64,000 nt of DNA from an uncultured Verrucomicrobiota bacterium (GTDB lineage: Bacteria > Verrucomicrobiota > Kiritimatiellia > PWTM01), in assembly GCA_964402695.1 (NCBI GenBank), contig CAYODK010000003.1, positions 22,697-86,696 of the forward strand, written 5' to 3'. Of this stretch, positions 33,592 through 50,982 are shown piece by piece. Within the stretch, counting starts at the first letter, position 1. Each line of letters starts with the position of its first letter. The notes under the pieces are model-generated. The model was given only the letters and a program-made list of their open reading frames with translations. It was not told where the DNA came from and did no database searches. A program made the position numbers and the translations under genes.

Positions 33592-34035
33592 AGTGTCACG
33601 CTCCACTTGAATCGCCGGGACTTCCCGAGCCCCCGCATCGGCATGGGCCGATCCGCTCCTGCCTGTCCGCCGGAGCCTCGGGTTGCGAAGGCGAAAGCGG
33701 ATCCCCGCGGTGCTCGCGGGAGATGAAGATCGCTGCGCTCAACGACGACCGCGCCGTCATCGAGCGCATTCCGCCATCGCCCCGGGCGGCTACGACGGAC
33801 AGGCCTGCGCCACCTCGGCCTGTGGCGTGCCCACCATAGCTTCAGCGAAGGAGGGGGACAGGGCGTGCGCGTCACGCCCGCCACCTGCCCCGCGTGGAAG
33901 AAGAAGGCCAGGCCCCTTGCAGCATCGCAGCCCGGAGGCTGAGCCGTCGGCCGGGGTCCCGCGGGGCCGGCTTCAATTCCTTCCTGCGATCGGTCAGGAT
34001 CCGGCCGCGTGGTGCGTTGCATTCATCGGTGCACG

Positions 34036-34563
34036 ATGGCCCTGTCGCACGAAGAGATCATGCGGAGCCTGTTCGCGGCCCGGTCGAGGCTGTCCGCGGC
34101 GGCGTGGGTCGTCGTGCGCGACGCCCAGGCGGCGGAGGACCTTTTCCAGAACGTCGCGCTGAAGGCCATGACGAAGAACGTCGTGTTCGAGCACGAGGGG
34201 GCGTTGCTTTCGTGGGCCACCGTGTCCATCCGGCGCGAGGCGATCGACTGGATCCGGCGTCGCCGGCCCGAACTGCCCGGCCTCGACCCGGACGTTCTCG
34301 ACCTTCTTGACGCGGACGCGCAGGCTTCCGCCGTCGCCGACTCGGGGCGCGTGGGCGCCCTACGGGATTGCCTTGAAGCGGTGCCCGAACCGGCCCGGCG
34401 CCTTCTCGAACTGCGCTATTTCGACGGCCACACGTGCGGCGAGGTGGCCCGCCGGGCCGGGCTCGGGCTCGACGCCGTCTACCAGCGGCTCTCGCGGCTT
34501 CACCGGCAGCTTCGCGCGTGCATCGAACAGCGGCTCGCCGCCGGGGCGGAGGCGGTTCCATGA
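34036..34563 (+). CDS. ECF-type RNA polymerase sigma factor
   Basis: Region-2-like LFQNVALKAM. Region-4 HTH ELRYFDGHTCGEVARRAGLGLDAVYQRLSRLHRQLR. Stop overlaps the anti-sigma start (ATGA). Confidence 0.8.
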   Translation: MALSHEEIMRSLFAARSRLSAAAWVVVRDAQAAEDLFQNVALKAMTKNVVFEHEGALLSWATVSIRREAIDWIRRRRPELPGLDPDVLDLLDADAQASAVADSGRVGALRDCLEAVPEPARRLLELRYFDGHTCGEVARRAGLGLDAVYQRLSRLHRQLRACIEQRLAAGAEAVP

Positions 34564-35864
34564 CGCCCCGCCGCGACACGTTCGACCTGCTGATGCGCCA
34601 CCTCGACGGGCGGCTCTCGGGCGACGACCTCCGCGCGCTGAACGACCTCCTGCGCACCGACGCGCGGGCGCGGGACTGGCTCCGGGAGATCGCGGGGCAG
34701 GCCGTGGCGATGGGCGACCTGGCGCGGAGCCGCACGGCGGAGCGACCGGCGGCGGTTGCCGGGCCGGCCCGCAGCCCGCGATGGTTCGCCGCTCCTGCCT
34801 GGGCGGCGCTCGCGGTCGCCTCCGTCGGGCTGATGTGGTGGTGGGCCGGCCCGGCGCGGCGGTCGGCCGCGCTCGTTGACGTGTCCGGCTCCGTGCTCTG
34901 GAGCGATGGCGGGACCGGCCCGCAGCCCGTATCGGCCTCCGGCGCCCGGCTGCATTCGGGCACGCTGGAGACCGTGGGGGCGGTGTCCTCGGCGCAGCTC
35001 CGGTTCGACGACGGAACGTGGTTCACGTTGGGCGGCAACTCGGAACTCTCGTTCTCGGCGGTCGGAGCGACGCGCGTGCATCTTCGCGGCGGATCGCTCA
35101 CCGCATGGGTCGCCCGGCAGCCTCCGGGGCGGCCCCTGGTCGTGCGCACGCCGACGGCGGAGGTGGAGGTTCTCGGCACCGAGTTCGCCGTCAACACCGT
35201 GGCCGACCAGACACAGCTCAACGTGGAGACGGGACGGGTCCGGCTGCGAAGACTCGTGGACGGACGCGTCGTCGAGGTCGCGGCGCGGCACGAGGCCGTG
35301 GCGTCGCTCGACGCACAGCAGCCTCTGGTGGCGGTTGCGCCGGCGGTTCCGCCGGGCGAGTGGAACGCCGATCTCGCCTCCGCCCCGACGGGCGGATCGA
35401 AGGGCGAACCGATTGCGGCGACCGGCGCCCGGCCCGCATGCTGGCGCGCCGTGCCCCTGGTCATGGGTCGCCGCGCCGCCGGATCGCCCGTCATCCACCA
35501 CGGGATCAGTGTCCGCGAGACGTCCCGCTCCCCGGCGGGATCGTTCGTATCGCTGTCGTCGGACAGCGAGGTCGTGCTGCGCTGGCGAACGGACCGGCCG
35601 TCGGGCCTCTTTGTCTTCCTGATCACGCAGCGCCCGGGCGGGGGCTTCGGCGGGAACTTCGAAATCAAGACGGCCGCGTTGGCGGGATCGGACGACGGCG
35701 GCGGGTGGCGGCGGGCGGCGCTTCCGCTCCGCGATTTCCGCCCCCTTCATCCCGGCCGGGCGGCTTTCGCGGGCCACGGCGTCTCTGCGGTTCTGGTGAC
35801 GACGTACGGCACGGACGCGGGCCTGGAGGTGGCGGCGGTGCGGATCGGGAGCGCCCGGCCATGA
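34560..35864 (+). CDS. FecR-domain anti-sigma factor, single-pass membrane protein
   Basis: Start at Met43 of track ORF 34434..35864. TM WAALAVASVGLMWWWAG. FecR-like LRFDDGTWFTLGGNSELSF...GRVRL. Confidence 0.8.
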   Translation: MTPRRDTFDLLMRHLDGRLSGDDLRALNDLLRTDARARDWLREIAGQAVAMGDLARSRTAERPAAVAGPARSPRWFAAPAWAALAVASVGLMWWWAGPARRSAALVDVSGSVLWSDGGTGPQPVSASGARLHSGTLETVGAVSSAQLRFDDGTWFTLGGNSELSFSAVGATRVHLRGGSLTAWVARQPPGRPLVVRTPTAEVEVLGTEFAVNTVADQTQLNVETGRVRLRRLVDGRVVEVAARHEAVASLDAQQPLVAVAPAVPPGEWNADLASAPTGGSKGEPIAATGARPACWRAVPLVMGRRAAGSPVIHHGISVRETSRSPAGSFVSLSSDSEVVLRWRTDRPSGLFVFLITQRPGGGFGGNFEIKTAALAGSDDGGGWRRAALPLRDFRPLHPGRAAFAGHGVSAVLVTTYGTDAGLEVAAVRIGSARP

Positions 35865-38701
35865 CCGTGCGGCACGCACGGGCCGCGGCGATCCTGCTGG
35901 CCCTCGCGCCGGCGGTCCGCGGCGCCGACACGCTGGAGTCTGCGGAAGCCCTGCTGGCCGCGGCGACGGGGGCGACCGGAGGGCGCGAGAAGACGCGCGT
36001 CTGCGGGCTGACCGACGCCCTGGCCGACCGCGCCGCGGCGCTGCTTTCGGACCCCGATCCGTTCGTCCGCGGAATCGCCGAATGGGCGATCGCGATCCGG
36101 GTCGGCACGGACAACGACCGGCGCCGGTACTGGCCGCGGCCGGATCCGCCGGCGTGGTATGCGCGGTGGAGCCGCCTCCGGCCGGAGGAGATGCTGGACG
36201 CCGACTACGTGCGCCAGGCCGTGGCCCTCGGCGAACACCGGTCGGCGGAGGCGATGCTGAGGTCCGCCGACGCAATTCTCCGCCGCGCGACGGGCCCCTC
36301 CGGGGAGGTGCGGCGGCGCGGGACCGAAGCGCGGCGCGCCCGCCTCGATCGCGATGTCGCGGCCCTTGCCGGGGCGCACGAGGCGGTGGTCCGTCTGGGC
36401 CGGCAAACGCCCGTCCCCATGACCGGGCTGCGCTCCGCGTGGCTGGCCCTCCGCCGCGCGGCGCGCCCGGTGGTGATGGCCCACCCGGACCTGGACTTCG
36501 ACGCGATGGTCTTCCTGACCCGCTACTCCTGCATCGGCCCCCACAACCTTGCATCCTACAGCTACCACCCGGACCATTACCGTCCCGGCGGTGACATCGT
36601 CGTGCAGCAGGGTCTCGACCCCGCCGCACCCGTGCGCGGAATCCTCGCCGGCCGGCCCGGCCCGGGCCACCTGCGCGGCATGGACCTCTGGTGGGACGCC
36701 GGCCGCGTCTGCTTCGCCTTCACGCCCCAGCCCGGCTGGACGAACGGGCCGGTCGGAGACGGAGGCGTCCATTCCGAACCGACGCACGTGTATGAGGTGC
36801 GCCTCGACGGAACCGGGCTGCGAGCGCTCACCCACGACCCGAAGTGGATCGACACCGAGCCGGCCTACCTGCCCGACGGCGGCGTGATCTTCGGCTCGGA
36901 CCGCGCCGGCATCGGGAGCGAATGCGGCGGATGGACGCAGAACGCCGGCGTTCTGAACCTCTTCCGGGTCTCCGCCGACGGGCGCACGGTGCGGCGCCTG
37001 ACGGTGAACAAGGACTACGACCGCTATCCGCACACGCTCGACAACGGCACGGTCGCCTTCCTCCGCTGGGACTACGCCGAGCGCCAGTTCTTCAGCTGCC
37101 ACTCGCTCTGGACCGTCCGCCCGGATGGCACGATGGCCGATGCCCTCTACAAGTCGCACATCCAGGCGCCGCCCTACTCGCTGCGCGATCCCCGTCCGGT
37201 CCCGGGCGGCACCAAGCTCGTGGCGATCGCCTGCGGGCACCACACCCTCGCCGAGGGCGCCGTGACGGTCGTCGACCCCCGCCGCGGCGTCAACGAGTCC
37301 GGCGGCATGCGCTACATCACACCGCACGCCGGCCCGACCGAGGGCGGGCTCGGCCGCATCGAGCCGGTCGCCGAGGGCGGGGTCGTCGATGCCGGCGGGC
37401 TCTATCAGACCCCCTGGCCGCTCTCGGAACGGGGCTTCCTGGTGTCCTACGCCTACGCGCATCCGGCGTCCGCGGGCTTCGCGCTGTACTACATCGACGC
37501 CTGGGGAAACAAGGAACTGCTCCGCCGCGACCCGGTCCTCGACTGCGCGTACCCCATGCCGCTTCGCCCGCGCCCGCAGCCGCCCGTGCTCGCGGAGGCC
37601 GCGGAACCCGGCCGGCCGCATGCGGTCTGCCATGTCAGCGACGTCTACCACGACCTTGACGGCGTCCCGCGCGGCGCCGTGAAGTGGTTGCGGATCTCCG
37701 AGCGCGTGCCCTGGCCGTTCGACAAGTCGCCGCGCGGCGAACTGCGCTGGGTGCCGGGCAACCCCTTCGCCCCGCAGTTTGGTTACTGGACATGGGCGCC
37801 GGTCCGCGTCATCGGCATCGTGCCGGTCGCGGCGGACGGCTCGGCCCACTTCCGGGTCCCTGCGGGCCTGGGCGTCTACTTCCAGGCGCTCGACGAGCGC
37901 TTCATGGAGATCCGCCGGATGCGGAGCCACGTCGCCTTCCAGCCGGGCGAGACGCGATCGTGCCTCGGCTGTCACGAGACCCGGGGAGGCGTCACCCCCT
38001 CGACCTACTGGACGGCCTCCACGGCCGCGCGCCGCCCGCCCGACGTTCCGGCGCCGCCGCCGTGGGGCGACACGGCCCTGTTCGATTTCGAGCGGATGAT
38101 CCAGCCGATCCTTGACCGCCGCTGCGCCGGCTGCCATGGCGCGACCCGGCCGAAGGGGGGGCTCGATCTGACCGCGACCCCCGACCCGTACGGCTTTGCG
38201 CAGTCCTACCGCTCGCTCTTCGGACTGAAGCCCGGCCGGCCGACCCCGGTCTCCGATGGCGACGGCTGGTACCGGAAGCACTTCCCCGGCGTGCCGTCGT
38301 ACGAGGACAAGGACTGGTACCGGCTCGTTCTCGAAAACCGGGCGCCCGGCCAGCTCGTCGCGGTCTCGGACCGCACCACCTCGCCCTGGCAGAAACCGGT
38401 CGACGCAAGCATCTCCCGGCCGATGCAGTTCGGCTCGCACCAAAGCGGGCTTGTGCTCAAGCTGCTGCGCGACGACGCGCACCGGCGTGCGGCCGCGCTC
38501 ACGGACGACGAATGGCACCTGCTCGTCGCGTGGATCGACGCCAACGCACCCTACCGTGCCCCGTTCTTCCAGAAGTTCGACGAGAACGGCGCGCCGCTCG
38601 CCCGGCCGTGGCGCGTGGAACTCGCGCTGCGGTCCCCCTGGGCCGCGGAACCGGCGGGGATGACCGGCCCCGTGCCGGTCCCGGAAGGAGGGACACCGTG
38701 A
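35861..38701 (+). CDS. large secreted protein: PD40/TolB-like beta-propeller region plus C-terminal Planctomycete-type cytochrome c (PSCyt-like) domain
   Basis: Signal MTVRHARAAAILLALAPAVRGA. LPDGGVIFGSDRAGIG and RVSADGRTVRRLT propeller-like repeats. Two CxxCH motifs (CLGCHE; IQPILDRRCAGCHGATRPKGGLDLTA). Confidence 0.65.
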   Translation: MTVRHARAAAILLALAPAVRGADTLESAEALLAAATGATGGREKTRVCGLTDALADRAAALLSDPDPFVRGIAEWAIAIRVGTDNDRRRYWPRPDPPAWYARWSRLRPEEMLDADYVRQAVALGEHRSAEAMLRSADAILRRATGPSGEVRRRGTEARRARLDRDVAALAGAHEAVVRLGRQTPVPMTGLRSAWLALRRAARPVVMAHPDLDFDAMVFLTRYSCIGPHNLASYSYHPDHYRPGGDIVVQQGLDPAAPVRGILAGRPGPGHLRGMDLWWDAGRVCFAFTPQPGWTNGPVGDGGVHSEPTHVYEVRLDGTGLRALTHDPKWIDTEPAYLPDGGVIFGSDRAGIGSECGGWTQNAGVLNLFRVSADGRTVRRLTVNKDYDRYPHTLDNGTVAFLRWDYAERQFFSCHSLWTVRPDGTMADALYKSHIQAPPYSLRDPRPVPGGTKLVAIACGHHTLAEGAVTVVDPRRGVNESGGMRYITPHAGPTEGGLGRIEPVAEGGVVDAGGLYQTPWPLSERGFLVSYAYAHPASAGFALYYIDAWGNKELLRRDPVLDCAYPMPLRPRPQPPVLAEAAEPGRPHAVCHVSDVYHDLDGVPRGAVKWLRISERVPWPFDKSPRGELRWVPGNPFAPQFGYWTWAPVRVIGIVPVAADGSAHFRVPAGLGVYFQALDERFMEIRRMRSHVAFQPGETRSCLGCHETRGGVTPSTYWTASTAARRPPDVPAPPPWGDTALFDFERMIQPILDRRCAGCHGATRPKGGLDLTATPDPYGFAQSYRSLFGLKPGRPTPVSDGDGWYRKHFPGVPSYEDKDWYRLVLENRAPGQLVAVSDRTTSPWQKPVDASISRPMQFGSHQSGLVLKLLRDDAHRRAAALTDDEWHLLVAWIDANAPYRAPFFQKFDENGAPLARPWRVELALRSPWAAEPAGMTGPVPVPEGGTP

Positions 38702-40677
38702 GAATCTGGATTCCGGCCGCACTCGCTGCGGCGATGGGGGCGGGCACAGCGGCAGGACCCGTCGACGGCGGCGGACTGCGCGTGTACCACATCGGCAACA
38801 GCCACACCGATTCGCTGCGGAACACGCTGATGCCGCTGGCCGTCGCGGCCGGGCACTCGAACCACTTCTTCTCGACGTCGATCATCCTCGGCGCGCCGCT
38901 CCGCTGGATCCGCGACCACGACAAGGACTGCCGCGAGCAGCCGTGGTCGGAGGGGCTCGCGCCCGGGAACGCCTGGGACGCCGCGACGCTCCAGTGCTAC
39001 GCGAGCGACGACGACGACATCGCCGCCGCCGTGCACTTCGCCGGGCTGCTCCACCGCGGAAACCCGCGGTGCCGCATCCTCATCTACACCATCTGGCCCG
39101 GCGCGGACGACGACTGGGAGGCCCCGAAGCACGAGCGCACCGAGGCGCGCTCGGAACGCTACGCCGAGGCGATCGCGAAGGCCTTCCCCGACGCCCCGCC
39201 CCCGCGCGTCGCGCCGACCAGCCTGGTCCTGCGCGAACTCGGCCGCCTCGCCGACGCCGGGGACCTGCCCGGCGTGCCGTCGCGGTTCGCGCTGCTCTCC
39301 GACGGCGGCCACCTCGCCGCGGCGGGCCACTACGCCGTCAGTGCGACGTTCTGCTCGATGCTCTACAACGAGCACCCGTTCGCCTACCCCGGCCGGATCC
39401 TGGCGTACGCAAAGGAGTCGAAGACGGAGAAGCGGGTCAGCCCCGACCGGGTGCAGTTCGAGCTTGCGCCGGAGACCGCCGCGGTCATCCGGCGGGTCGT
39501 GTGGGATGTGCTCGCGACCTATCCGCCCGCGGGCGTCGAGGCCGGGCTGGTCATCGCCGACCGCGCACTGCCCGCCGCGGTCGCCGGCCGGCCGTACGCC
39601 CATGCGTTCCGCGCGCTCCATGCCTCCGGCCCTGCCGCGTGGTCGCTCTCCGCCGACGCGCTCCCGGCCGGGCTGGCGCTGGGCGCGGACGGCACGCTCT
39701 CGGGCGCCCCGGCGGCGCCCGGCTCGTTCGCGATCACGGTCCGCGTCGAGGCCGGCGGGCGCCGGTTCGAGAAGCCCTTCACACTGGTCGCAAGCGAGGA
39801 CCGTCCGCCGCGGATCGCGTCGGGCGATCTTGAGTCCGTCCCGCTCGACCGGCACGTGTTCCACGAACTCCGGGCCGACGGCGGGGTGGGCAAACTCACA
39901 TGGAGCCTCGCATCCGCCGAGGCGCGCCTGCCCTACGGCGTGCGGCTGGCGAAGACGGGGATCCTGCTGGGCACGCCGGGCGAGGCCGGGGAGTTCCGCT
40001 TCGCCGTCCGCGTGACCGATGCGCATCCCGACGGCCCGCGCAGCGACGAACGGTCCATCGTCTGGCGGATCGACCCCGCGACGCCCGGCGCGCTGGTGGC
40101 GCCCGCGGTGGCGACCGCACCCGTGCTGGACGGGAACCTCGACGAACCATTCTGGCGCCTCGACCAGGCCGTCACCGGCGCCCCGCCCGCGAAGGCCGCC
40201 TCGCTCGGAGTCGTCTGGGTGCCGAACCGCGACTGGCGAAAGGGCGGCACCGTCCACATCGCGATGAAGGTGAGCGACGGCGCCTCCGGCCGGAGCCCCC
40301 GGGATGCGGTCCACCTCTATCTCGACGGCATGCACAACCGCGAGCGGATGTACAACCAGGACGACACCCATTTCGTGATCCGGCGCGACGGGCGGAGCGA
40401 AACGGTCCGCGGCAAGCCGAACTGGTTCCTCAAGGCCGCCGCGCGCGAGGCCGACGGCGGCTGGACGTTGGAGATCGCCGTGCCGCACAATTACTTCGTC
40501 GGCGCCGGCTCATGGATCGACATGGCGCCGCGGGCCGTCTACGGATTCGACCTGGCCGTCGCGTCCGGCACGGAGGGGGCGGCAAGCGCCTTCTGGCGCG
40601 GCTCGGCGGCGAACGACGAGGACACGAGCGGATTCGGAAGCCTGGTGCTCGGCGGGGCCGGGGACGGGAAGCGATGA
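38698..40677 (+). CDS. secreted multidomain protein: SGNH-like N-domain, two putative Ig (dystroglycan/cadherin-like) domains, C-terminal CBM9/DOMON-like domain
   Basis: GTG start overlapping the previous stop (alternative ATG 38734). LRVYHIGNSHTDSL. ALPAGLALGADGTLSGAPAAPGSFAITVRV and LPYGVRLAKTGILLGTPGEAGEFRFAVRV. C-terminal TAPVLDGNLDEPFW. Confidence 0.55.
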   Translation: MRIWIPAALAAAMGAGTAAGPVDGGGLRVYHIGNSHTDSLRNTLMPLAVAAGHSNHFFSTSIILGAPLRWIRDHDKDCREQPWSEGLAPGNAWDAATLQCYASDDDDIAAAVHFAGLLHRGNPRCRILIYTIWPGADDDWEAPKHERTEARSERYAEAIAKAFPDAPPPRVAPTSLVLRELGRLADAGDLPGVPSRFALLSDGGHLAAAGHYAVSATFCSMLYNEHPFAYPGRILAYAKESKTEKRVSPDRVQFELAPETAAVIRRVVWDVLATYPPAGVEAGLVIADRALPAAVAGRPYAHAFRALHASGPAAWSLSADALPAGLALGADGTLSGAPAAPGSFAITVRVEAGGRRFEKPFTLVASEDRPPRIASGDLESVPLDRHVFHELRADGGVGKLTWSLASAEARLPYGVRLAKTGILLGTPGEAGEFRFAVRVTDAHPDGPRSDERSIVWRIDPATPGALVAPAVATAPVLDGNLDEPFWRLDQAVTGAPPAKAASLGVVWVPNRDWRKGGTVHIAMKVSDGASGRSPRDAVHLYLDGMHNRERMYNQDDTHFVIRRDGRSETVRGKPNWFLKAAAREADGGWTLEIAVPHNYFVGAGSWIDMAPRAVYGFDLAVASGTEGAASAFWRGSAANDEDTSGFGSLVLGGAGDGKR

Positions 40678-42146
40678 GACGGACGTTGGGATGGGCGATG
40701 GCGCTTTGGATGGCGGGGGTTGCGACACCGGGCGCTGTCGGGGCCTCGCCCGCCGCCACGGAGCCGATGCCGCGCCTCGGCGTCGCCCCGAACGGCCGGC
40801 ATCTGGTGCAGTCGGACGGGACGCCATTCTTCTGGCTCGGCGACACCGCCTGGCACCTGTTCGGCAAGTCCGTGCGCGAAGACGCGACGAACCAGCCTTC
40901 CGTCACCCGCTATTTCGCGGCGCGGGCCGCCCAGGGATTCACCGTGATCCAGTCCGTGATGGTCCGCGAGACCGACGGGGGGCCGGCGCGGAACGAGGCC
41001 AATGCGTACGGGCACGTTCCGTTCGAGGAGGGCGACGCGTCGCGGCCGCGGATTCGACCCGGGGCCGACGACGACTACTGGGACCACATCGGGTGGTGCA
41101 TCGACGAGACGGCCCGCCACGGGCTCCGCATGGCCGCGCTGCCGGTTTGGCTGCAGGATATCGAGGATGACGATCCGTTGGCTGCGGATCCGACGGTCGC
41201 CTATCGCTACGGACGCTTCCTCGGCACCCGCTGGGGCCGGTCGCCGTCGGTGGTCTGGGTGCTGGGTGGCGACGCATGGAAGAAGGGCCGCAACGTCGAC
41301 ACCCCCTCCCGGCTCGCGCTCGTCCGTGCGATGGCCGAGGGCATAGCGGACGGCGCGACCGGGTCCGACGCCTTCGACGGTGCGGCCCGCTGGGATGCGG
41401 TGCTGATGACCTTCCATCCGCCCGGCGGCGGACATTCCTCATCCGAATGGCTGCACGACGAGCCGTGGCTCGATTTCAACATGATCCAGACGACCACGCG
41501 CTTCTCGTTCGACAACTGGCGCACCGTGGCGCGCGACTTCGCCCGGACTCCGCCGAAGCCGACCTTCGACGCCGAGGTCGCCTACGAGGAGTCGCTCTCG
41601 CTGCGCAAGACCGAGCGACAGGACATCCGCATCCGACCGTGGGATGTGCGCCGCGCCGCCTGGTGGGGCGTGCTCTCCGGCGGCTGCGGCCACACCTACG
41701 GTCACCGCAGCTTCATCGGGTGGATTCGGAAGGGCGAGACCTACAAGCACGGGGCGCACATCCCGTGGGTCGAGCGTCTTGATGCGCCCGGGGCCACGCA
41801 GATGATCCACCTCCGTCGCCTGGTCGAGACGTGCCGCTTTCACGACCACACGCCCGCGCCGGAGTTGATCGAGGGCGGTCCCGGCGACGGCGACGCACGA
41901 ATCCAGGCCGCGCGCTCCGCCGATGGCCGCGTGGCCCTGGTCTACACGCCCATGGGCCGCGCCATCGCCCTCCGAGGCGACCGCTTCGGCGCACCGGCGG
42001 ACGCGTCCTGGTACGATCCGCGCACCGGCGAGACGACCGGGATCGGGCCGTTGTCCGCTTCCGCGGGCCGCCCCTTCCGTCCGCCGACCTCCGGCGAGGG
42101 TTGCGATTGGGTCCTGGTGGTTCGTGCACGGGAGGAGCAACGATGA
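40674..42146 (+). CDS. DUF4038-domain glycoside hydrolase (GH140/apiosidase-like)
   Basis: Signal MRRTLGWAMALWMAGVATPGAVGA. DGTPFFWLGDTAWHLF N-terminal motif of DUF4038. Confidence 0.7.
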   Translation: MRRTLGWAMALWMAGVATPGAVGASPAATEPMPRLGVAPNGRHLVQSDGTPFFWLGDTAWHLFGKSVREDATNQPSVTRYFAARAAQGFTVIQSVMVRETDGGPARNEANAYGHVPFEEGDASRPRIRPGADDDYWDHIGWCIDETARHGLRMAALPVWLQDIEDDDPLAADPTVAYRYGRFLGTRWGRSPSVVWVLGGDAWKKGRNVDTPSRLALVRAMAEGIADGATGSDAFDGAARWDAVLMTFHPPGGGHSSSEWLHDEPWLDFNMIQTTTRFSFDNWRTVARDFARTPPKPTFDAEVAYEESLSLRKTERQDIRIRPWDVRRAAWWGVLSGGCGHTYGHRSFIGWIRKGETYKHGAHIPWVERLDAPGATQMIHLRRLVETCRFHDHTPAPELIEGGPGDGDARIQAARSADGRVALVYTPMGRAIALRGDRFGAPADASWYDPRTGETTGIGPLSASAGRPFRPPTSGEGCDWVLVVRAREEQR

Positions 42147-44983
42147 ACGCGATGAGGTGCCGCACTTTTCGATGTCTCGACCCGCGGGGGCCACTCGCGC
42201 GGGCGTGGGGCGCGGTGTCCGGCACCGCCGTCAGGCCCGTACTTCTGGCTGTCGTCGCGCTCGCGGCCGCGGCCCCGGCGGCGGAGAACCTGGTGCGGAA
42301 CGGGTCCTTCGAGGGCGCGCTGCTCTACTGGCACGGGGTCAGCCCGTCGAACCACGCGCTCGCGCGCGGGGCGCGGTGCGGCGACTACGCGCTCCAACTC
42401 CGCAAGGGCGCCGTGATGAGCGCGCCGTTCGTCTGCGAGCGCGGGAAGAATTACACGGTGAGCTTCTTCGTCCGGGGCGAGACGCCATGCGAGGTCCACG
42501 TGCAGATGCCGCCGAGCGCCCGCGAGGAGGGACAGAAGGCGGGGCGGCTGTGGTCGCGCGAAGGGACGAAGTCGGCGAAGGTCGGAACGGCGTGGCAGCG
42601 CGTTTCGTTCTCGTGGCCGGCCGATGTGCCGCCGAGCGGCTTCTGGCCGAATCCGCACTACATGGCCCAGATCGAACCACGCGGGGGCACGATCCTGGTC
42701 GACGGCATGACCGTCACGGAGGGCGACACGGGAACGGACGACTACGTTCCGCGCCGCCCCGTCGAGGTCGTCGCCGAATGTCCCGACCTGCCCGGCTACG
42801 AAGGCGCGAAGGCAAACCTGTTCGCGACCGGCGCGACGGTCCGCGTCACGGGACACGTCTCGAATCCGGGCGCCGCGGACCGCGAAGTGCGCCTCTGCTG
42901 GCAGTTGTTCGACTACGAGGGCGAGCGGCCCGTCGGCCAGCCGGTCGTGAAGGACATCCGCGTGCCCGCCGGAAGGACCGCGAGCGAAACGGCGCTGCTT
43001 CAGCTCACGGCCAGCGGCTGCGTTCTTGCCCGCGTCAGCGTCCTCGATGCCTCCGGGATTTCGACGAAGGGCCCGTCGCGGCTCGACGCGTCCGAGATCC
43101 CGCTGACGTCCCTGCCCTATCCGAAGGCGGCCGTGAAGCCGGACTGGCGGGAGCGCTTCGGCGGTTCGTTCGCGGGCGGAACCGGGTGCGTCGACAAGTT
43201 CCGCGCGCTGGGCTTCGGCTGGATCCGCTGGCGGCCGCACATGAACGGCCAGGACCACTGGCCCGACCGCGACGCGCCGATGCTCTTCTTCGACAAGGAA
43301 CTCGACGAGCAGGAGTCGCGCGGCTGCTCGACCCACTGCGTGCTCTATCCGCCGCCGAAGTGGATCATGGAGAAGGGCCATCCGCTGCCCACCGACATGC
43401 GGTGGGCGGCGGACGATCTGCGCTGGGACGACCTCGCCGTCGAGACCACCTGGGACCGCTTCGTCAAGGCGGCGGTCGGGCACTACCGGGGGCGTTCGCT
43501 CATCTACGAGATCGAGAACGAGCCGGAATTCGACAAATGGGACGACCACCTGGAGCAGTACGCGAAGTTCACGATCCGCACCGCGAAACTGATTCGTCAG
43601 ACCGATCCCGCCGCGAAGATCATGGTGAACAACGTCTATGGCATCCCCAGCAAGGTGAACGCGGCCTTCTTCAAGGCGGGCGGGCTGAAGTTCATCGACG
43701 TGATGTCCTGGCACGACTACCACGAGGGATGGCTCGCCGACGCGACGGGTATCAAGCGGATGCGGCAGAACATGGACGAGGCCGGCGGCAGGAACGTTGA
43801 GATCTGGTTCAACGAGGGCTGGGCGTTCTCCAACACGGCCGTCGACGAGCCGATCGCCTGCACGCGGCTGACCGCCGCGCAGAGTTGCAACGCGATCGTG
43901 GACTCCGTCGCCGAACTGAGCGCCAACGGGCAGGCGAAGACGATCCTGTTCCACGTCGCGTACGAGACGCACGGCATGAGCTTCTGGGACTACAGCGGCC
44001 CCGGCACGATGCTGTGGGACTGGTACGACCTGCCGATGCCCCTCGTGGCCGCCTGGAACGTGCTCGCGCACCACATCGGCGTCAGCGAGGCCGTCGGGTT
44101 CGTCCGCCCGCCCGGCGCCAGCGTGTGCATCTTCGACGACCTCCGCAACAGGCGCGGCGTGATGATCGCCTACGCGGACCGCGACGCGAAGACCGACGCG
44201 GTCGTCGACCTTCCCGACGTCGGCGCCCCGCTGGTCGCCGAGGACATCATGGGCAACGCGGCCTCCGCGCCCGCGCGGCTCGTGCTGTCGAAGACCGGGC
44301 GGCCGGTGATCCTGTACGCCGCGCGCCCCGTCGGCGGGCGCGTCTTCTTCGACCGGCTGGCTCCGCTCGACCGGAAGCACGCGGGCTTCGTCCGCACGGG
44401 CAAAGGCGGCGCGCGGACGTGGTCGCTTCCGCCCGCATGGGAGGGAACGGCCAAGGGGTCGCCCGACGGCAGCGCGGTGCTCGCCGACGGCCGGCCCGTC
44501 TGGAAACTCGAGCAGGTCTGGCCGCCGGAACCGCGAAAGCCTGCGAACTACCGGCCGATGGTCTGGAGCGGAACGGCGTGGAACGTGGCCGAGGGCGGGT
44601 TCGGCGGCCAGCCCGGCGCGGGTCTCCGCGACAGCGCGATGGTCCTTTCCACCCGCGCGGCGCACGGCCAGCCGCCGCAACGCCGGTTCTGCGCGCTGGT
44701 CTTCGTCGCGCCGGATCCCGGCCGCTACACGCTCCGGGGCACGGTCCGCGCCCGCATCTGGGACGGCAGGCAGACGACCGTCCTCCGGCTGCTGCGCAAG
44801 AACGCCGCCGACGCGGTGGAGATCGCGCGGATGTCGGTCGCACACGGCGCGTCGGCTGCGCTGGACTGGCCTGCTGTCGAACTGGGCGCCGGCGACGAAC
44901 TGGTTCTGCTGCCCGAGATCGAGGGCATGTACGCCGGCGGCGACCTGGCGATCGAAGACCTCTCCGTGGCCGGCGCTCCGTGA
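42143..44983 (+). CDS. clan GH-A glycoside hydrolase with N-terminal CBM4/9-like module
   Basis: Signal. ENLVRNGSFEGAL..W. IYEIENEPEF (NEP acid/base) and VEIWFNEGW nucleophile region. Confidence 0.65.
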   Translation: MNAMRCRTFRCLDPRGPLARAWGAVSGTAVRPVLLAVVALAAAAPAAENLVRNGSFEGALLYWHGVSPSNHALARGARCGDYALQLRKGAVMSAPFVCERGKNYTVSFFVRGETPCEVHVQMPPSAREEGQKAGRLWSREGTKSAKVGTAWQRVSFSWPADVPPSGFWPNPHYMAQIEPRGGTILVDGMTVTEGDTGTDDYVPRRPVEVVAECPDLPGYEGAKANLFATGATVRVTGHVSNPGAADREVRLCWQLFDYEGERPVGQPVVKDIRVPAGRTASETALLQLTASGCVLARVSVLDASGISTKGPSRLDASEIPLTSLPYPKAAVKPDWRERFGGSFAGGTGCVDKFRALGFGWIRWRPHMNGQDHWPDRDAPMLFFDKELDEQESRGCSTHCVLYPPPKWIMEKGHPLPTDMRWAADDLRWDDLAVETTWDRFVKAAVGHYRGRSLIYEIENEPEFDKWDDHLEQYAKFTIRTAKLIRQTDPAAKIMVNNVYGIPSKVNAAFFKAGGLKFIDVMSWHDYHEGWLADATGIKRMRQNMDEAGGRNVEIWFNEGWAFSNTAVDEPIACTRLTAAQSCNAIVDSVAELSANGQAKTILFHVAYETHGMSFWDYSGPGTMLWDWYDLPMPLVAAWNVLAHHIGVSEAVGFVRPPGASVCIFDDLRNRRGVMIAYADRDAKTDAVVDLPDVGAPLVAEDIMGNAASAPARLVLSKTGRPVILYAARPVGGRVFFDRLAPLDRKHAGFVRTGKGGARTWSLPPAWEGTAKGSPDGSAVLADGRPVWKLEQVWPPEPRKPANYRPMVWSGTAWNVAEGGFGGQPGAGLRDSAMVLSTRAAHGQPPQRRFCALVFVAPDPGRYTLRGTVRARIWDGRQTTVLRLLRKNAADAVEIARMSVAHGASAALDWPAVELGAGDELVLLPEIEGMYAGGDLAIEDLSVAGAP

Positions 44984-45035
44984 CCGCGCCGGCCCCGGTT
45001 CGTGGACAGTGGCACGGGTGCGGGAGGGATGGACG

Positions 45036-46631
45036 ATGAGGATGCAGGCGGTGGCGATGGCGGTGGCGGCGGCCCTGGGCGTGCCGGGGCTCGCGGGGAC
45101 GGGGATGGCCGCGCAGCCGGCGGAGGCGCCCGCCGCGACGCGGCTGGGGATCAACCTCGCCGGCCCGGCGGACTGGAACAGCGAACTGCCGTTCGTCGAT
45201 GTCTTTCGCCAGTCGAGACCGTGGATCAGCCAGAAAGAGGGCGCCGCGTGGGGCAAGGGGCCGGACCTCGCGCTGGACGAGTTCGGCTGGGTGAAGCGGC
45301 TGGAGCCCGGCTGCTACGCCGAGAGCATGCTCTGCACGGTCGGCGGCGGACACTACCCCGGCGGCGTCTACACGGTCCTCTACGAGGGCGAGGGAAAGCT
45401 GGGCGTCGGACACAACGCGAAGATCGTCGACGCCGCGCCCGGCCGGATGCGCGTCGACGTCGATTCGTCCAAGGGCGGCTGGTCGCTGCAGATCCGCGAG
45501 ACGAACCCGCAGAACCCCGTGCGCGACATCCGCGTCCTCATGCCCGGCTTCGAGGCGACGGGGCAGACCGAGCCGTTTCATCCGGTCTTTCTGAAGCGAT
45601 GGAAGGGCTTCGCGTGTTTCCGGTTCATGGACTGGATGCATACCAATGGCTCGGAGATCCGCACGTGGGCCGACCGCCCGACGCTGCGCCACGCGACGTT
45701 CTCCAGGCGCGGCGTCGCGCTGGAATGGATGATCGACCTGTGCAACCGCCAGAAGGCCGATCCGTGGTTCTGCATGCCGCACCTGGCCGACGACGACTAC
45801 GTGCGACGGTTCGCGCGCATGGTGAAGGAGCGGCTGGACCCGGGACGGAAGATCTACATCGAATATTCCAACGAGGTCTGGAACGGCCAGTTCGCGCAGA
45901 GCCGGTACGCCGGCGAGCAGGGCGTGAAGCTCGGCCTCGGTCCGAAGGACAAGCCGTGGGAGGCGGGCTGGCACTATACCGCCGTCCGGTCGGTGGAGAT
46001 CTTCCGCATCTGGGAGGAGGTCTTCGGCGGGCACGACCGGTTCGTCCGCGTGCTGCCCGTGCAGACCGGCGTCGGCGCGGTCGCGGACGGCGTGTGCGGC
46101 TTCCGCGACGCCGCGAAGCACGCCGACGCGATGGCCGTCGCGCCGTACATGGGCTACAGCATCGGGCGCGGGAAGACGGCGGACCTCGGCCCGACGATGC
46201 GCGACTGGACCGCGGACCAGATGCTCGACCACTTCGAGAAGACCGGCTTCGCCGACGCCCTGCAGCGGATGGCGAAAGACAAGGCCTCCGCCGCGAAGCA
46301 CGGCCTCGCGCTCGTCGCCTACGAGGGCGGGCAGCACATGGTCGCGTTCGTGAAGGACCGCGACCTCACGGCGGCCCTCACGAAGACGATGCACGCCTGC
46401 AACCGGCATTCGCGGATGGGCGACCTCTACCGGCGCTATTTCGCGGAATGGGCCCGGCTCGGCGGCGGCACGTTCTGTCACTTCTCCAGCATCGGCAACT
46501 GGAGCAACCACGGCGCGTGGGGGTTGGCCGAACACTACGACAGCCGGCCCGCCGACTACCCGAAGCTGGCCGCGGCCCTGGATTGGGCGAAGACGCTCGG
46601 CCAGCCGGTTGAACTCGAGGCCCGCAAGTGA
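45036..46631 (+). CDS. clan GH-A (GH5-like) glycoside hydrolase
   Basis: Signal MRMQAVAMAVAAALGVPGLAGTGMAA. IEYSNEVWN. Confidence 0.6.
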   Translation: MRMQAVAMAVAAALGVPGLAGTGMAAQPAEAPAATRLGINLAGPADWNSELPFVDVFRQSRPWISQKEGAAWGKGPDLALDEFGWVKRLEPGCYAESMLCTVGGGHYPGGVYTVLYEGEGKLGVGHNAKIVDAAPGRMRVDVDSSKGGWSLQIRETNPQNPVRDIRVLMPGFEATGQTEPFHPVFLKRWKGFACFRFMDWMHTNGSEIRTWADRPTLRHATFSRRGVALEWMIDLCNRQKADPWFCMPHLADDDYVRRFARMVKERLDPGRKIYIEYSNEVWNGQFAQSRYAGEQGVKLGLGPKDKPWEAGWHYTAVRSVEIFRIWEEVFGGHDRFVRVLPVQTGVGAVADGVCGFRDAAKHADAMAVAPYMGYSIGRGKTADLGPTMRDWTADQMLDHFEKTGFADALQRMAKDKASAAKHGLALVAYEGGQHMVAFVKDRDLTAALTKTMHACNRHSRMGDLYRRYFAEWARLGGGTFCHFSSIGNWSNHGAWGLAEHYDSRPADYPKLAAALDWAKTLGQPVELEARK

Positions 46632-48058
46632 AGCCCGCGCCCACCGCGCCGCGCCTCGTCTGCCTGGGGCTGCTGCTTGCCGTTTCGCCCGCATCCAGTC
46701 AGGAAGGCCGGCCGGCGGCGGGCGGCAGGCCCAATGTCCTCTTCATCATCGCCGACGACCTCAACCGCAGCCTGCCGTGCTACGGCCATTCCATCGTCAA
46801 GACGCCGAACGTGGACCGGCTGGCGGCGCGGGCGGTCCGCTTCGACCGCGCCTACTGCCAGTATCCGGTGTGCAGCCCGTCGCGCGTTTCGTTCCTGAGC
46901 GGGCGGCGGCCGGAACAGACGCGGATGTTCGGCAACGAGGACGCCTCGCGCACGCCGTCGCTGAAGGACGCCGTGTTCCTGCCGGAGTTCTTCCGGCAGC
47001 AGGGCTACTTCACCGCGCGCGTCGGCAAGGTCTTTCACATCGGCCGCGACGTGCCGGAGTGCTGGGACGTGACCGAGGAAGGCACGCCGGACGGCAAGGT
47101 CATCTACCAGCCCCAGGAGCCGGACAAGCTCGGCCTGCGGGAGAGCATCGCGCAGGAGGGCGAACTCGACGGCGACACGGGCGAAGGCGGGCACTGGTAC
47201 CGGCTCGCGCCCGTCGAGGAGAAGCTGATCGACCCGAGCACCGCGCGTCGCGTTTCGGCACTGATCGAACAGGGCGCGACGGGCGGCCGGCCGTTCTTCG
47301 TCGCGTGCGGTTTCCGCCGTCCGCATCTCCCGTGGATGGCGCCGGAGGAGTTCTTCGCGCCCTACCCGCCGGAGACCCTGCCGCTGCCGGCCCGGGGCGA
47401 GGTGCCGCGCCCCGTCGGCCCGGTGCAAGGCAAGGCGCCCGCCGCGTCGGACGACTCGCGGCGCGCCGCCCTGCGCGCCTACTTTGCCTGCATCAGCTTC
47501 ATGGACCGGCAGCTCGGCCGCGTGCTCGACACGATGGACCGGCTCAAGCTCTGGGACAACACGGTCGTGCTGCTGCTCGGCGACAACGGCTACCACCTCG
47601 GCACGCGCGGCGGCTACTGGGGCAAGGGCACGCCCTACGAGGAAAGCTGCGGCGTGCCGCTGCTGATCGCCGCTCCCGGCAGGGCCAAGGCGGTCGGTTG
47701 CCCGCGCGTGGTGGAATACGTGGACTTCTACCCGACGCTCGTCGACCTCTGCGGCCTGCCCGCGCAGCGCGACCTGGCCGGCCGCAGCCTGCGCCCGCTG
47801 CTCGACGATCCCGCCGCGCCGTGGGGCCACGCCGCATTCAGCATCAACGCCCGGAACAACCAGCCGTGGAATCTCGCCGTCAGCACCGAGCGGTTCCGGT
47901 ACATCGAATACGCGGATGAGAAGAAGCCGTGCGAACTCTACGACATCCAAACCGACCCGCGCGAGTGGACGAATCTCGCCGCCGCACCGGAGCACGCCGC
48001 GACGCTGGATGCTCTGCGGAAGCTGGCGGCGGAGCACCGACAGAGATTCTGGAGGTAG
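46628..48058 (+). CDS. sulfatase
   Basis: GTG start overlapping the previous stop. PNVLFIIADDLN. CQYPVCSPSRVSFLSGRRP. Confidence 0.9.
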   Translation: MKPAPTAPRLVCLGLLLAVSPASSQEGRPAAGGRPNVLFIIADDLNRSLPCYGHSIVKTPNVDRLAARAVRFDRAYCQYPVCSPSRVSFLSGRRPEQTRMFGNEDASRTPSLKDAVFLPEFFRQQGYFTARVGKVFHIGRDVPECWDVTEEGTPDGKVIYQPQEPDKLGLRESIAQEGELDGDTGEGGHWYRLAPVEEKLIDPSTARRVSALIEQGATGGRPFFVACGFRRPHLPWMAPEEFFAPYPPETLPLPARGEVPRPVGPVQGKAPAASDDSRRAALRAYFACISFMDRQLGRVLDTMDRLKLWDNTVVLLLGDNGYHLGTRGGYWGKGTPYEESCGVPLLIAAPGRAKAVGCPRVVEYVDFYPTLVDLCGLPAQRDLAGRSLRPLLDDPAAPWGHAAFSINARNNQPWNLAVSTERFRYIEYADEKKPCELYDIQTDPREWTNLAAAPEHAATLDALRKLAAEHRQRFWR

Positions 48059-48061
48059 GTC

Positions 48062-49339
48062 ATGAAGCGCACGCTTGAAGTGCTGGCCGTCGTCCTCGCC
48101 CTGGCGGCCCCGGCGGTGGAGGGCGCGCCGCGCTGGGAGATCCGGGCGGCGGGAGGCGGCTGGCAATTGCTCCGCGACGGCCGGCCGTTCCACATCGAGG
48201 GCGCCGTCGCGCCGAACCGGTTCGACGTGCTGGCCGCGTGCGGCGGCAACGCGGTGCGCGTCAATGCCAGCCGCAAGGCGCTCGACGCGGCGCAGGGAGC
48301 CGGTCTCGCCGTCATGGCCAACCTTCCCGTCCGCGGCGAGCGCAACCAGCTCGACTGGGACAACGCCGGGCAGGTCGCCGAACAGAAGGAGAAGGTCCTC
48401 GCGGTGGTGCGCGAGTTGAAGGACCACCCGGCGCTGATGTTCTGGTCGATCGGGAACGAGCTCGACCACATCCCCGGCAACCGGCGCTACAACCCCGCCA
48501 TCTGGGCGCGCCTGAACGACCTCGCCGTCGCCATCAAGCAACTCGACCCGCATCATCCGGTGATGACCGTCGTCGGCACCGGTCACTTTGAGACGAAGGT
48601 TCAGGAGATCGCCGCCGGCTGCAAGGACATGGACCTTCTCGGCATCAACGCCTACGGCGACATCGCGCGGGCGTGCGAGCTGGCCCGCGCGCATTGGCCG
48701 AAGGCGTACGCCGTCACGGAATGGGGGCCGACCGGTCACTGGGAGGTTCCGAAGACGGCCTGGCGCGCGCCGATCGAGCAGACCAGCAGCGAGAAGGCGA
48801 AGGTCATCGAGGAGCGGTATCGCAACGTCATCCTCGCCGACCGGACGCGCTGCCTTGGCTCGTTCGTCTTCTACTGGAGCGAGAAGCAGGAGACGACGCA
48901 CACGTGGTACGGCCTCTTCTGCGACGGCCTGCGCACCGAGTCGATCGATGTGATGCAGCATCTCTGGACCGGGGCGTGGCCGTCCAATCGCGCGCCGGCG
49001 ATCGCAGGGCCGGCCATCGAGGGCGTTGCCGACCCACGGGCCGTCGTGCTGAAGGCCGGAGCGGCGCACCGCGCCTCGGTCCGGGTGACGGATCCGGACG
49101 GCGATCCGCTTGCGTACACCTGGGACATCCGTCCGGAGGTCGTGATCCCGCCCGGCTCCTACGCGGGGGGACTTGAGAAGCGCGCCGAGCCGGTCCCCGG
49201 CCTCGTCCGCGAGCCCGCCGCGGCGGCGACCGGATTCTCCGCGCCGCTCGCGCCCGGGGCCTACCGCCTCTTCGTCGCGGTCGCCGACGGCCGCGGCCAC
49301 ATCGCATACGGCAACGTGCCGTTCCGGGTGGAGGAGTAG
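48062..49339 (+). CDS. clan GH-A glycoside hydrolase
   Basis: Signal MKRTLEVLAVVLALAAPAVEGA. WSIGNEL and AVTEWG motifs. Confidence 0.65.
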   Translation: MKRTLEVLAVVLALAAPAVEGAPRWEIRAAGGGWQLLRDGRPFHIEGAVAPNRFDVLAACGGNAVRVNASRKALDAAQGAGLAVMANLPVRGERNQLDWDNAGQVAEQKEKVLAVVRELKDHPALMFWSIGNELDHIPGNRRYNPAIWARLNDLAVAIKQLDPHHPVMTVVGTGHFETKVQEIAAGCKDMDLLGINAYGDIARACELARAHWPKAYAVTEWGPTGHWEVPKTAWRAPIEQTSSEKAKVIEERYRNVILADRTRCLGSFVFYWSEKQETTHTWYGLFCDGLRTESIDVMQHLWTGAWPSNRAPAIAGPAIEGVADPRAVVLKAGAAHRASVRVTDPDGDPLAYTWDIRPEVVIPPGSYAGGLEKRAEPVPGLVREPAAAATGFSAPLAPGAYRLFVAVADGRGHIAYGNVPFRVEE

Positions 49340-49342
49340 GCC

Positions 49343-49485
49343 ATGATGCACCGCGGGCTGACGTTCGGGCTCCTGCTGGGCTGCGCCGCGGCCGCGGCCG
49401 GAGGGCCGACGCAGGAGACCCTCCGCGCCTTCTATTTCGGCAACAGCCTGACTGACCGCGCGGCGGGGACAGAGATGATCGGATT
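49343..49485 (+). pseudogene. N-terminal remnant of an SGNH-like lipoprotein, truncated where a dispersed repeat begins
   Basis: MMHRGLTFGLLLGCAAAAAGGPTQETLRAFYFGNSLTDRAAG (lipobox LLGC; FYFGNSLTD, compare VYHIGNSHTD of the 38698 gene). The downstream frame dissolves into repeat-derived sequence. Confidence 0.3.
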
Positions 49486-49560
49486 CGTAGACACGGCACC
49501 CCCGCCGCGTTTCCCGGGAGGGGCAGCGGCCCCGCTGCCCGAGCGCGGGATCCCCGTCCC
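49462..49560. repeat. Dispersed repeat, copy A (upstream flank of the ATPase gene)
   Basis: ggggacagagatgatcggattcgtagacacggcacccccgccgcgtttcccgggaggggcagcggccccgctgcccgagcgcgggatccccg, ~85% identical to 50983..51085. A second shared segment gtttccgagaggcgcc..gccttctcc lies at ~49700 and ~51140. Confidence 0.7.
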
Positions 49561-50922: not shown

Positions 50923-50982
50923 AGGACTGATATTCAAGAAAAGTATGCCTACATCTGAACAAGAGCAAGCCTGATCCACGGT

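Follow-up and report, generated by a model that had tools for sequence, protein, structure and literature searches.

A candidate sigma-led, probably autoregulated operon with a conserved three-gene core and exchangeable glycan-degrading genes in an uncultured Verrucomicrobiota bacterium

Pairs of extracytoplasmic function (ECF) sigma factors and anti-sigma factors occur in very large numbers in Planctomycetota, Verrucomicrobiota and Lentisphaerota, and to our knowledge almost none of them has a known signal, promoter or regulon. One such pair lies in a stretch of 64,000 nucleotides (the window) from an uncultured Verrucomicrobiota bacterium of the lineage Kiritimatiellia, PWTM01 (GenBank assembly GCA_964402695.1, contig CAYODK010000003.1, positions 22,697 to 86,696), where it stands at the head of nine genes on the + strand, followed by a haem protein related to the alpha subunit of hydrazine synthase (HZS) and by six genes for predicted secreted proteins, glycoside hydrolases (GH) and a sulfatase among them. 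The question raised by this locus is what the pair controls and with which partner it might sense its signal. The answer that we favour, with measured confidence, is a sigma-led, probably autoregulated operon, in which a conserved three-gene core is joined to an exchangeable cargo of glycan enzymes and the whole would act as a self-amplifying sense-and-degrade unit.

The window has a G+C content of about 71% and contains long spurious open reading frames (ORFs) on both strands. An initial annotation, made from the letters of the sequence, had described nine consecutive + strand genes at 34036-49339 with seven tight junctions out of eight, headed by an ECF sigma factor and a FecR-type anti-sigma factor as part of one co-directional cluster, and this description was upheld throughout. 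Each of the nine ORFs ends in one terminal stop and has a G+C content at third codon positions of 0.87-0.93, the codon-position frame plot indicates + strand coding across 34.0-49.3 kb, and the profile matches in the cluster fall on + strand ORFs. Three antisense ORFs of about 1000-1200 aa (35747-38722, 41942-45256 and 46556-50122, all on the - strand, the last of 1188 aa), which extend over several + strand genes in different frames, were dismissed as high-GC artefacts. The seven tight junctions comprise ATGA overlaps at 34560, 35861, 40674 and 42143, GTGA overlaps at 38698 and 46628, and a 3-nt gap (48059-48061) ahead of gene 9 at 48062; the eighth is a 25-nt gap between gene 6 and gene 7 (45009).

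An NTGA overlap alone is weak evidence, since A, G or T ahead of any TGA makes a start codon, and the starts were therefore checked independently. The N-termini of the sigma factor and of the FecR protein, aligned with their orthologues, agree with the proposed starts, and in two orthologous loci (L079 and L082; surveyed loci bear L numbers throughout) the source annotation pipelines made identical 4-bp overlap calls for the first three genes. Genes 3, 4 and 5 have a signal-like hydrophobic segment immediately after the proposed start, gene 8 has no alternative start that would retain its signal peptide, and the start of gene 9 is the first one available in its open frame. The start is ambiguous for gene 6 (42143, 42152 or 42215) and for gene 7 (45009 or 45036, probably the latter, at which a 531-aa NCBI protein begins). 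A consensus scan found no sigma-70-type promoter inside the cluster (0.7 expected), the promoter types of the host phylum lying outside that scan. Terminator-like sites in 32000-51500 amount to 5 against 7.3 expected, with no excess over chance inside the cluster, and an Rfam scan of 28000-53000 returned zero RNA elements. The nine genes thus probably form one operon with a single transcript.

Gene 1 (34036-34563, +; 175 aa) encodes an ECF (group 4) sigma-70 factor made of regions 2 and 4 only, with matches above cut-off to Sigma70_r2 (residues 18-77), Sigma70_r4_2 (108-154) and Sigma70_ECF, and with Sigma70_r4 also among its Pfam matches. It scores 70.4 bits against TIGR02937 (cut-off 42.9), and its best specific NCBIfam model, TIGR02989 of the Rhodopirellula/Verrucomicrobium ECF family, gives 92.6 bits, below the cut-off of 124.55. 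The anti-sigma gene adjoins it with a 4-bp overlap, and the identical pairing is seen in all related loci with upstream sequence.

An ECF-type promoter had been predicted in the region ahead of gene 1, and a candidate was indeed found there: GTCAGG (-35)-N16-CGTT (-10) at 33993-34018 (+), which occurs once in the window with 0 mismatches and whose CGTT ends 17 nt before the ATG of the sigma gene. The exact motif also lies 7-20 nt ahead of the sigma start in L002, L079, L082, L084, L088, L090, L092, L093, L096, L099, L100 and L107, that is, upstream of 13 sigma genes of the family when the window is counted, and only 4 other matches occur in the 1.55 Mb of fetched loci. The 40 nt preceding the sigma gene are kept in L002 and L079, where the remaining upstream sequence has diverged. 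A second copy of the motif in L002 stands ahead of a GH158-like gene, and GH158 therefore belongs to the likely regulon of this close relative. GTCAGG-N16-CGTT is thus a candidate autoregulatory, sigma-dependent promoter. The short distance from CGTT to ATG implies a very short leader, and this sigma family would give rise to transcripts with almost no leader or none.

Just 5' of the ECF motif, L079 (3990-4060) and L002 (7930-8000) also carry two or three palindromes of the form TTTCCAAG-N3-CTTGGAAA, which adjoin a tandem winged-helix (ArsR/MarR-like) regulator gene and look like operators of a second control layer. Neither the winged-helix regulator gene nor the palindromes were found in the window.

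Gene 2 (34560-35864, +; 434 aa) encodes a single-pass anti-sigma factor of the FecR family, with PF04773 (E 3e-16) as its sole Pfam match and no match to FecR_C/DUF4974. In its AlphaFold2 (AF2) model, obtained with 34 homologues and a predicted local distance difference test (pLDDT) score of 86.6, a cytoplasmic helical anti-sigma domain (residues 3-61) and a transmembrane helix (81-95) are followed by a periplasmic part composed of a FecR beta-domain (103-250) and a C-terminal beta-sandwich (268-431). Foldseek matched the FecR domain to PupR (6ovk_R) and BDI_1681, anti-sigma factors of the Protein Data Bank (PDB) that are also matched by profile alignment (hmmsearch), and matched the sandwich to the carbohydrate-binding module (CBM) CBM11 1v0a (E 3e-4) and to CIA30 (7zkq_A). 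The match to PupR covers about 156 columns only and corresponds to the FecR part. In PupR, an STN subdomain pairs with the TonB-dependent transducer; Foldseek of the AF2 model detected no STN subdomain in gene 2, where the CBM11/CIA30-like sandwich takes its place.

Two short motifs stand out in the periplasmic part. Residues G206-T207, within 'EVxGTxF', are invariant across the 34 family members and align with the corresponding FecR-domain position of BDI_1681. The autocleavage site of E. coli FecR is G181/T182 (PMC12036975), and by analogy G206-T207 is a putative autoproteolysis site at the canonical FecR position. In the C-terminal sandwich, the motif GGFGGNFE/W is invariant over loci with unrelated cargo, a pattern that argues for a common ligand or partner and not for one particular glycan.

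Gene 3 (35861-38701, +; 946 aa) encodes an exported, predicted two-haem homologue of HZS alpha (PF18582 HZS_alpha, E 3e-20). The protein consists of a signal peptide, an N-terminal helical domain (residues 22-206), a beta-propeller (215-600), a middle domain ending in C701LGCH and a C-terminal haem domain with C755AGCH, and both CxxCH motifs (701 and 755) are invariant among 25 homologues. By structure and by sequence, its best PDB match is 5c2v_A, to which phmmer aligned five colinear segments and to which Foldseek matched the AF2 model (pLDDT 82.5, predicted TM-score 0.85) over 854 columns (E 9e-24, 16-17% identity), with TolB next. In its modelled fold, gene 3 is a full-length structural homologue of HZS alpha with an added N-terminal helical domain; judged by its sequence, it is not a hydrazine synthase. 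The NCBIfam model hydrazine_alpha (NF052339) gives 52.6 bits against a cut-off of 800, the genes adjacent to gene 3 are those for FecR and for a He_PIG/CBM9 protein, with no HZS beta or gamma subunit gene among them, and Glu706 after the first CxxCH (CLGCHE), invariant in the gene 3 family, is aligned with the Tyr of CSGCHY in 5c2v_A, a residue said to have been identified by Dietl et al. in 2015 as a haem ligand in HZS. Full-length homologues of gene 3 number in the hundreds; each carries the annotation hypothetical, and most come from metagenome-assembled genomes (MAGs) of Planctomycetota. The closest relatives of the host bacterium, a member of the Planctomycetes-Verrucomicrobia-Chlamydiae (PVC) group, are MAGs labelled Lentisphaerae.

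The initial annotation had described the gene 3 product as a TolB-like propeller with two CxxCH motifs in a planctomycete-cytochrome (PSCyt) domain; the propeller and the two motifs stand, and the domain is to be replaced by HZS alpha. PF07635 was unreported on the full protein, and on residues 731-820 PSCyt1, though the top match, reached 15.3 bits (E 0.032, 18 profile positions), below the threshold of 22 bits.

Among 103 ORFs located 3' of HZS-alpha-like genes (L001-L078), six have matches to CCP_MauG-type dihaem peroxidases and others are beta-propellers or cytochrome c. Dihaem proteins of the CCP_MauG type and beta-propeller proteins are the kinds that form the gamma and beta subunits of HZS, and the MAGs with such neighbours are not labelled as anammox bacteria.

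The association of these three genes was followed in related loci from two sides. On the side of gene 3, 78 genome loci with homologues were surveyed, and sigma or FecR genes were sought within 10 kb by phmmer and iterated hidden Markov models. About 70 of the 78 loci have neither nearby, which rules out an obligate pairing of the HZS-like family with sigma/FecR, and Pfam scans of 206 ORFs neighbouring gene 3 homologues revealed no dominant partner; the family as a whole thus appears to be autonomous of sigma/FecR. A linkage of the family to sulfatases (14 of 78 loci) is roughly the background of sulfatase-rich phyla and was not counted as evidence.

Within the clade of gene 3 itself, the association is tight. 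Neighbour-joining places the window together with L001, L002, L003 and L079, and L082 is a further orthologous locus, found via its FecR gene. The order sigma-FecR-HZS-like is present in L001, L002, L079 and L082 with 4-bp overlaps or a 9-nt gap, L003 being cut off on its upstream side. Every member of the clade with upstream sequence thus keeps the triad, a positive outcome for the co-occurrence check in related genomes that the initial annotation had proposed, and the cargo behind it varies (MR_MLE, a 317-aa unknown, GH26, a gene 7 homologue, PA14, GH140 and sulfatase). A second, distant triad occurs in L044, with 43% identity in gene 3. In L001 (8028-9946), compared with 34036-35864 of the window, identity in the sigma factor drops to 25% and no alignment is obtained for the cytoplasmic anti-sigma domain, and the periplasmic half of FecR (50-52% identity) and the haem protein (66%) keep a level similar to that of L002 and L079. 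Judging from these alignments, L001 has exchanged its sigma factor and cytoplasmic anti-sigma domain as a unit, in a modular swap at the membrane boundary; the periplasmic FecR half therefore travels with the haem protein.

On the side of FecR, six contexts from a protein collection and 22 metagenome loci, found with a 10-sequence FecR alignment, were surveyed, and in all of those with upstream sequence a sigma gene lies directly 5' of FecR. Where the FecR family is 35-45% identical, about 14-15 of 24 loci have a large CxxCH protein of 660-950 aa among the first two genes behind FecR, either an HZS-like protein or one with the architecture PSCyt1-PSD3-PSD5-PSD4-PSCyt3-PSD2 accompanied by a DUF1552 mate. 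At this distance, proteins of the PSCyt/PSD architecture and DUF1552 (HXXSHH) proteins directly follow the sigma/FecR pair in L083, L085, L088, L093, L094 and L096-L101. PSCyt/PSD and DUF1552 are abundant families of unknown function in the PVC group. Large CxxCH proteins occupy 11 of 35 slots at positions +1/+2 against 5 of 105 elsewhere (Fisher p = 1e-4). In the literature on ECF/FecR we found no description of triads with HZS-like or PSCyt proteins, and the three-gene head looks like an undescribed envelope signalling module.

These results suggest how the operon would work. In the resting state the anti-sigma factor would retain the sigma factor at the membrane, and an envelope signal would lift this inhibition, by proteolysis if the analogy with FecR holds. 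The freed sigma factor would then transcribe from 33993-34018 through its own gene and all nine genes, and the outcome would be a self-amplifying sense-and-degrade unit. Several points weigh against this reading. Sequence alone speaks for a single transcript and for a motif that depends on the sigma factor, the proteolytic mechanism is likewise inferred, and the gene 6/gene 7 junction (25-52 nt, depending on the start), possibly also that between gene 5 and gene 6, leaves room for an internal start. A sigma or FecR gene lies within 10 kb in only about 8 of the 78 gene 3 homologue loci, in several orientations, and this association is polyphyletic in the gene 3 tree; such scatter fits a regulated target as much as a partner. 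The enrichment at +1/+2 rests on crude gene calls and some of the contigs are near-duplicates, and 2 of 6 sampled FecR relatives have no large downstream gene.

Whether gene 3 takes part in sensing is a separate matter. That it acts as periplasmic partner or co-sensor of the anti-sigma factor, and not just as the first cargo gene, is a tentative proposal, in our view somewhat less likely than not; the initial annotation had made it by analogy with trans-envelope signalling in Bacteroidetes, and it is plausible. It is favoured by the tight linkage across the clade, by the swap in L001, by the enrichment of haem proteins behind FecR and by the sandwich motif that is independent of cargo.

The strongest competitor, in our view unlikely and still to be taken seriously, is that gene 3 is first cargo only, a periplasmic redox enzyme or electron carrier, and that the anti-sigma factor senses a ligand, possibly a glycan fragment, through its own CBM11-like sandwich. 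The resemblance of the gene 2 C-terminal domain to CBM11 (1v0a, E 3e-4) and other carbohydrate-binding sandwiches is in keeping with this, but the sandwich motif is invariant also where the cargo is non-carbohydrate (PSCyt/PSD with DUF1552), which is a poor fit to a glycan-specific sensor. Likewise, gene 3 homologues are mostly independent, without sigma/FecR and in very mixed neighbourhoods, six of them adjoin CCP_MauG-type dihaem proteins and propellers in a way that fits an autonomous redox function, and some FecR relatives have only their sigma factor beside them, without a large downstream gene; yet in L001 the periplasmic FecR half and the haem protein were held together through the swap, and haem proteins are enriched at +1/+2 behind this FecR family.

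If the partner role is extended from this locus to its relatives, FecR-type anti-sigma factors of the PVC group would use an exported c-type haem protein as periplasmic partner in place of the TonB-dependent transducer, a generalization that we regard as doubtful. Candidates for such a haem partner are HZS-alpha-like propeller proteins and PSCyt/PSD proteins together with their DUF1552 mates, and the signal might come from a glycan fragment or, sensed by the haem, from a redox or small-molecule cue.

It is improbable that the cluster is not one operon, with the sigma factor driving the triad only and the six enzyme genes having their own promoters and other regulators. Cargo does vary among orthologous loci, separate winged helix-turn-helix regulator genes are present in the neighbourhoods of L002 and L079, the GH158-like gene of L002 is preceded by a separate copy of the promoter motif, 25-52 nt lie between gene 6 and gene 7, and the promoter types of the host phylum fall outside our promoter scan. 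Against this, six or seven junctions consist of 4-bp overlaps or, in one case, a 3-nt gap, terminator-like sites are not above chance, the ECF motif has no second copy in the window, and strand and codon bias are common to all genes.

Canonical signalling of the FecIRA type, in which an iron or other TonB-dependent import cue merely adjoins glycan genes, is very improbable. The FecR domain, the ECF sigma factor and the G-T motif at the FecR autocleavage position (PMC12036975) are shared with such systems, but ORFs of at least 600 aa in the coding frames of the window gave no match to a TonB-dependent receptor (Plug, TonB_dep_Rec), the anti-sigma factor ends in the CBM11/CIA30-like sandwich, with no STN subdomain and no FecR_C/DUF4974 match, and no iron-uptake genes are present at the locus. 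That gene 3 is a genuine HZS subunit in an anammox-type nitrogen metabolism can practically be dismissed, the Pfam HZS_alpha middle domain and the best structural match to 5c2v_A over the whole chain being outweighed by a score of 52.6 bits where 800 is the cut-off, an identity of 16-17%, the lack of adjacent beta/gamma genes, the glycan-degrading context, an invariant Glu where 5c2v_A has Tyr after the first CxxCH, and the extra N-terminal helical domain.

The presumed output of the operon is coded by genes 4 to 9, all six with a signal-like segment at the N-terminus of their product. Gene 4 (38698-40677, +) codes for a secreted protein of 659 aa with two He_PIG Ig-like domains (1.5e-14) and a CBM9-like C-terminus (CBM9_1, 3e-6; CBM9 of xylanase 1i82_A was also matched). 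The SGNH identity that it had been given stays at motif level without profile support: its N-terminal domain bears a GNSHTD motif, and residues 1-280 have zero Pfam matches at E<=1. Close orthologues of gene 4 lie near HZS-like genes in L009 and L051. Gene 5 (40674-42146, +; 490 aa), described earlier as GH140-like, is of the GH140 type (apiosidase-like, DUF4038), with 295.3 bits to the Apiosidase profile PF13204 (cut-off 26.5) and a C-terminal Collagen_bind_2 domain (PF12904, 67.6 bits). Gene 8 (46628-48058, +; 476 aa) was likewise assigned correctly, being an S1-family (formylglycine) sulfatase (PF00884, 140 bits, with SGSH_C) that has the maturation motif CSPSR at residues 82-86; an orthologue (E 1.5e-268) lies 3' of the triad in L002.

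Three enzymes of clan GH-A had been proposed among the remaining cargo, and two of them were borne out. Gene 9 (48062-49339, +; 425 aa) is by sequence a member of GH158, with phmmer matches over its full length to 9oro_A (GH158; E 4.7e-82, residues 30-424) and 6pal_A (E 3.7e-66), and its catalysis is predicted accordingly. Gene 6 (42143-44983, +; 946 aa) codes for a secreted protein with an N-terminal CBM4-like module, a central GH39-like catalytic domain of clan GH-A and a recurrent C-terminal domain of about 190 aa. Searched against PDB, its family profile matched the GH39 beta-xylosidase 4ekj_A (E 4.5e-12) with the NEP motif aligned, as well as GH5 mannanases and, at 1e-6, CBM4 xylanase modules, and Pfam gave a weak CBM_4_9 match.

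The third, gene 7 (45009-46631, +; 531-540 aa), has no detectable family: Pfam gave no match at E<=1, PDB searches, also that with a 20-sequence profile, found no relative, and hhalign against genes 6 and 9 was negative. It is a conserved secreted protein of an unclassified family, with more than 2800 homologues of about 520 aa (55-87% identity) in Verrucomicrobiota and Planctomycetota, none with a Pfam domain, and a homologue is among the cargo in both L079 and L082. The motifs EYSNEVWNG and AYEGGQH are conserved, a hint that the family may be an unclassified glycoside hydrolase family; toward clan GH-A, only NE and YEGG-like motifs are visible. A sulfated glycan is a plausible substrate of the cluster.

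The cluster closes an island rich in carbohydrate-active enzyme (CAZyme) genes, at about 7.7-49.3 kb of the window. Its upstream stretch of 25 kb (7767-32239) contains a GH2 with F5/8C (7.8-10.7 kb), a sulfatase (15.1-16.7 kb), a GHL10 (20.0-22.6 kb), a GH16 on the - strand (25.0-28.5 kb) and, spanning 28.4-32.2 kb, a GH26 with F5/8C that ends at 30711 and a sulfatase that ends at 32239. Members of GH26, GH158 and the gene 7 family recur in L079 and L082, as cargo of the orthologous triad there or next to it, and this recurrence points to a shared substrate.

Two AAA_14/DUF4143 ATPase genes (32347-33591, +; 49651-50979, -) bracket the operon in opposite orientations. A mobile cassette was considered and rejected: the ATPases are only 37% identical, and the sole long inverted repeat (33422-33479/49778-49835) is their coding homology. 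A tenth ORF (49343-49768, +) starts 3 nt after gene 9 and appears to be a truncated SGNH-like remnant. It has a signal peptide and the motif LRAFYFGNSLTD (GNSLTD), which resembles the N-terminus of gene 4, before a repeat cuts it short; a direct repeat joins it to 38776-38810 in gene 4, and it is coding-like in the frame plot only until about 49600. The operon may once have been longer.

A GC-rich hairpin, GGGCAGCGG-CC-CCGCTGCCC, lies at 49516-49542 (+), 177 nt past the stop of gene 9 and within a repeat of about 100 nt (blastn of 49464-49556 against 50987-51085, 86% identity). Its second copy at 51045-51071 is an exact duplicate, with 0 expected by chance. The hairpin at 49516-49542 is a possible end of the transcript; shuffled sequence folds as well as the region past gene 9 (z = -0.31). 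The repeat with its hairpin GGGCAGCGGCCCCGCTGCCC flanks the - strand ATPase gene on both sides, as if this gene had been inserted in the tail of the operon.

The interest of the locus is that it joins a promoter motif found across a sigma family, a conserved three-gene core and a clear output in the form of secreted glycoside hydrolases and a sulfatase. Directly behind an anti-sigma factor it has a relative of HZS alpha outside anammox and, by extension, PSCyt/PSD proteins, and this placement suggests that they have a role in envelope signalling or are among its first targets. Should the partner role of gene 3 be true, it would represent a TonB-independent form of cell-surface signalling and help to explain how PVC bacteria switch on polysaccharide degradation. 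Extended to haem partners in general, it would tie CAZyme expression to the redox state of the envelope and offer a first functional handle on the PSCyt/PSD/DUF1552 and HZS-alpha-like families.

Among systems already described, the FecI-FecR-FecA and PupI-PupR-PupB systems are the obvious relatives of this locus. As in these, an ECF sigma factor is translationally coupled with a single-pass anti-sigma factor that carries a periplasmic FecR domain and a G-T motif at the autocleavage position, and the regulators are found beside their presumed target genes. As in polysaccharide utilization loci of Bacteroidetes with ECF/anti-sigma/SusC-like signalling, the genes under presumed control degrade glycans. 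Unlike both, the locus has no TonB-dependent transducer or SusC/SusD pair that we could find, the latter having no Pfam match among the genes scanned in the window. At the C-terminal position of the PupR STN subdomain, the anti-sigma factor has a CBM11/CIA30-like beta-sandwich, the next gene codes for a periplasmic c-type haem protein, and the regulators head their presumed target operon behind the promoter motif GTCAGG-N16-CGTT with almost no leader.

The haem protein in turn shares with HZS alpha of Kuenenia stuttgartiensis (5C2V chain A) the propeller, the middle domain with terminal CxxCH and the C-terminal haem domain with CxxCH, and differs from it in the extra N-terminal helical domain of about 185 aa, the Glu in place of Tyr after the first CxxCH, the identity of only 16-17%, and the setting, a non-anammox organism and context with no beta/gamma partners nearby. 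PSCyt1-3/PSD1-5 proteins, paired with DUF1552 or DUF1501, are of unknown function and have been described as lying close to sulfatases (He et al. 2017, doi 10.1101/150078). Like these, gene 3 codes for a large, exported PVC protein with a haem motif of the PSCyt1 type ('P-I-L-x-x-x-C-x-x-C-H-G'), and PSCyt/PSD proteins directly follow more distant members of the same sigma/FecR family; unlike these, the gene 3 product is without PSD domains and under the PSCyt1 threshold, having the propeller and HZS middle domain instead. The co-localised genes for secreted glycoside hydrolases, CBM proteins and S1 sulfatases recall the CAZyme-sulfatase clusters of Planctomycetota, Verrucomicrobiota and Lentisphaerota, but here, unlike in those clusters, a dedicated regulator module and a candidate promoter can be assigned. 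The locus reads as a putative variant of ECF/FecR signalling, in which no TonB-dependent transducer was found, the anti-sigma factor has a CBM11/CIA30-like C-terminus, the third gene codes for a haem protein and a glycan-degrading operon is the likely target.

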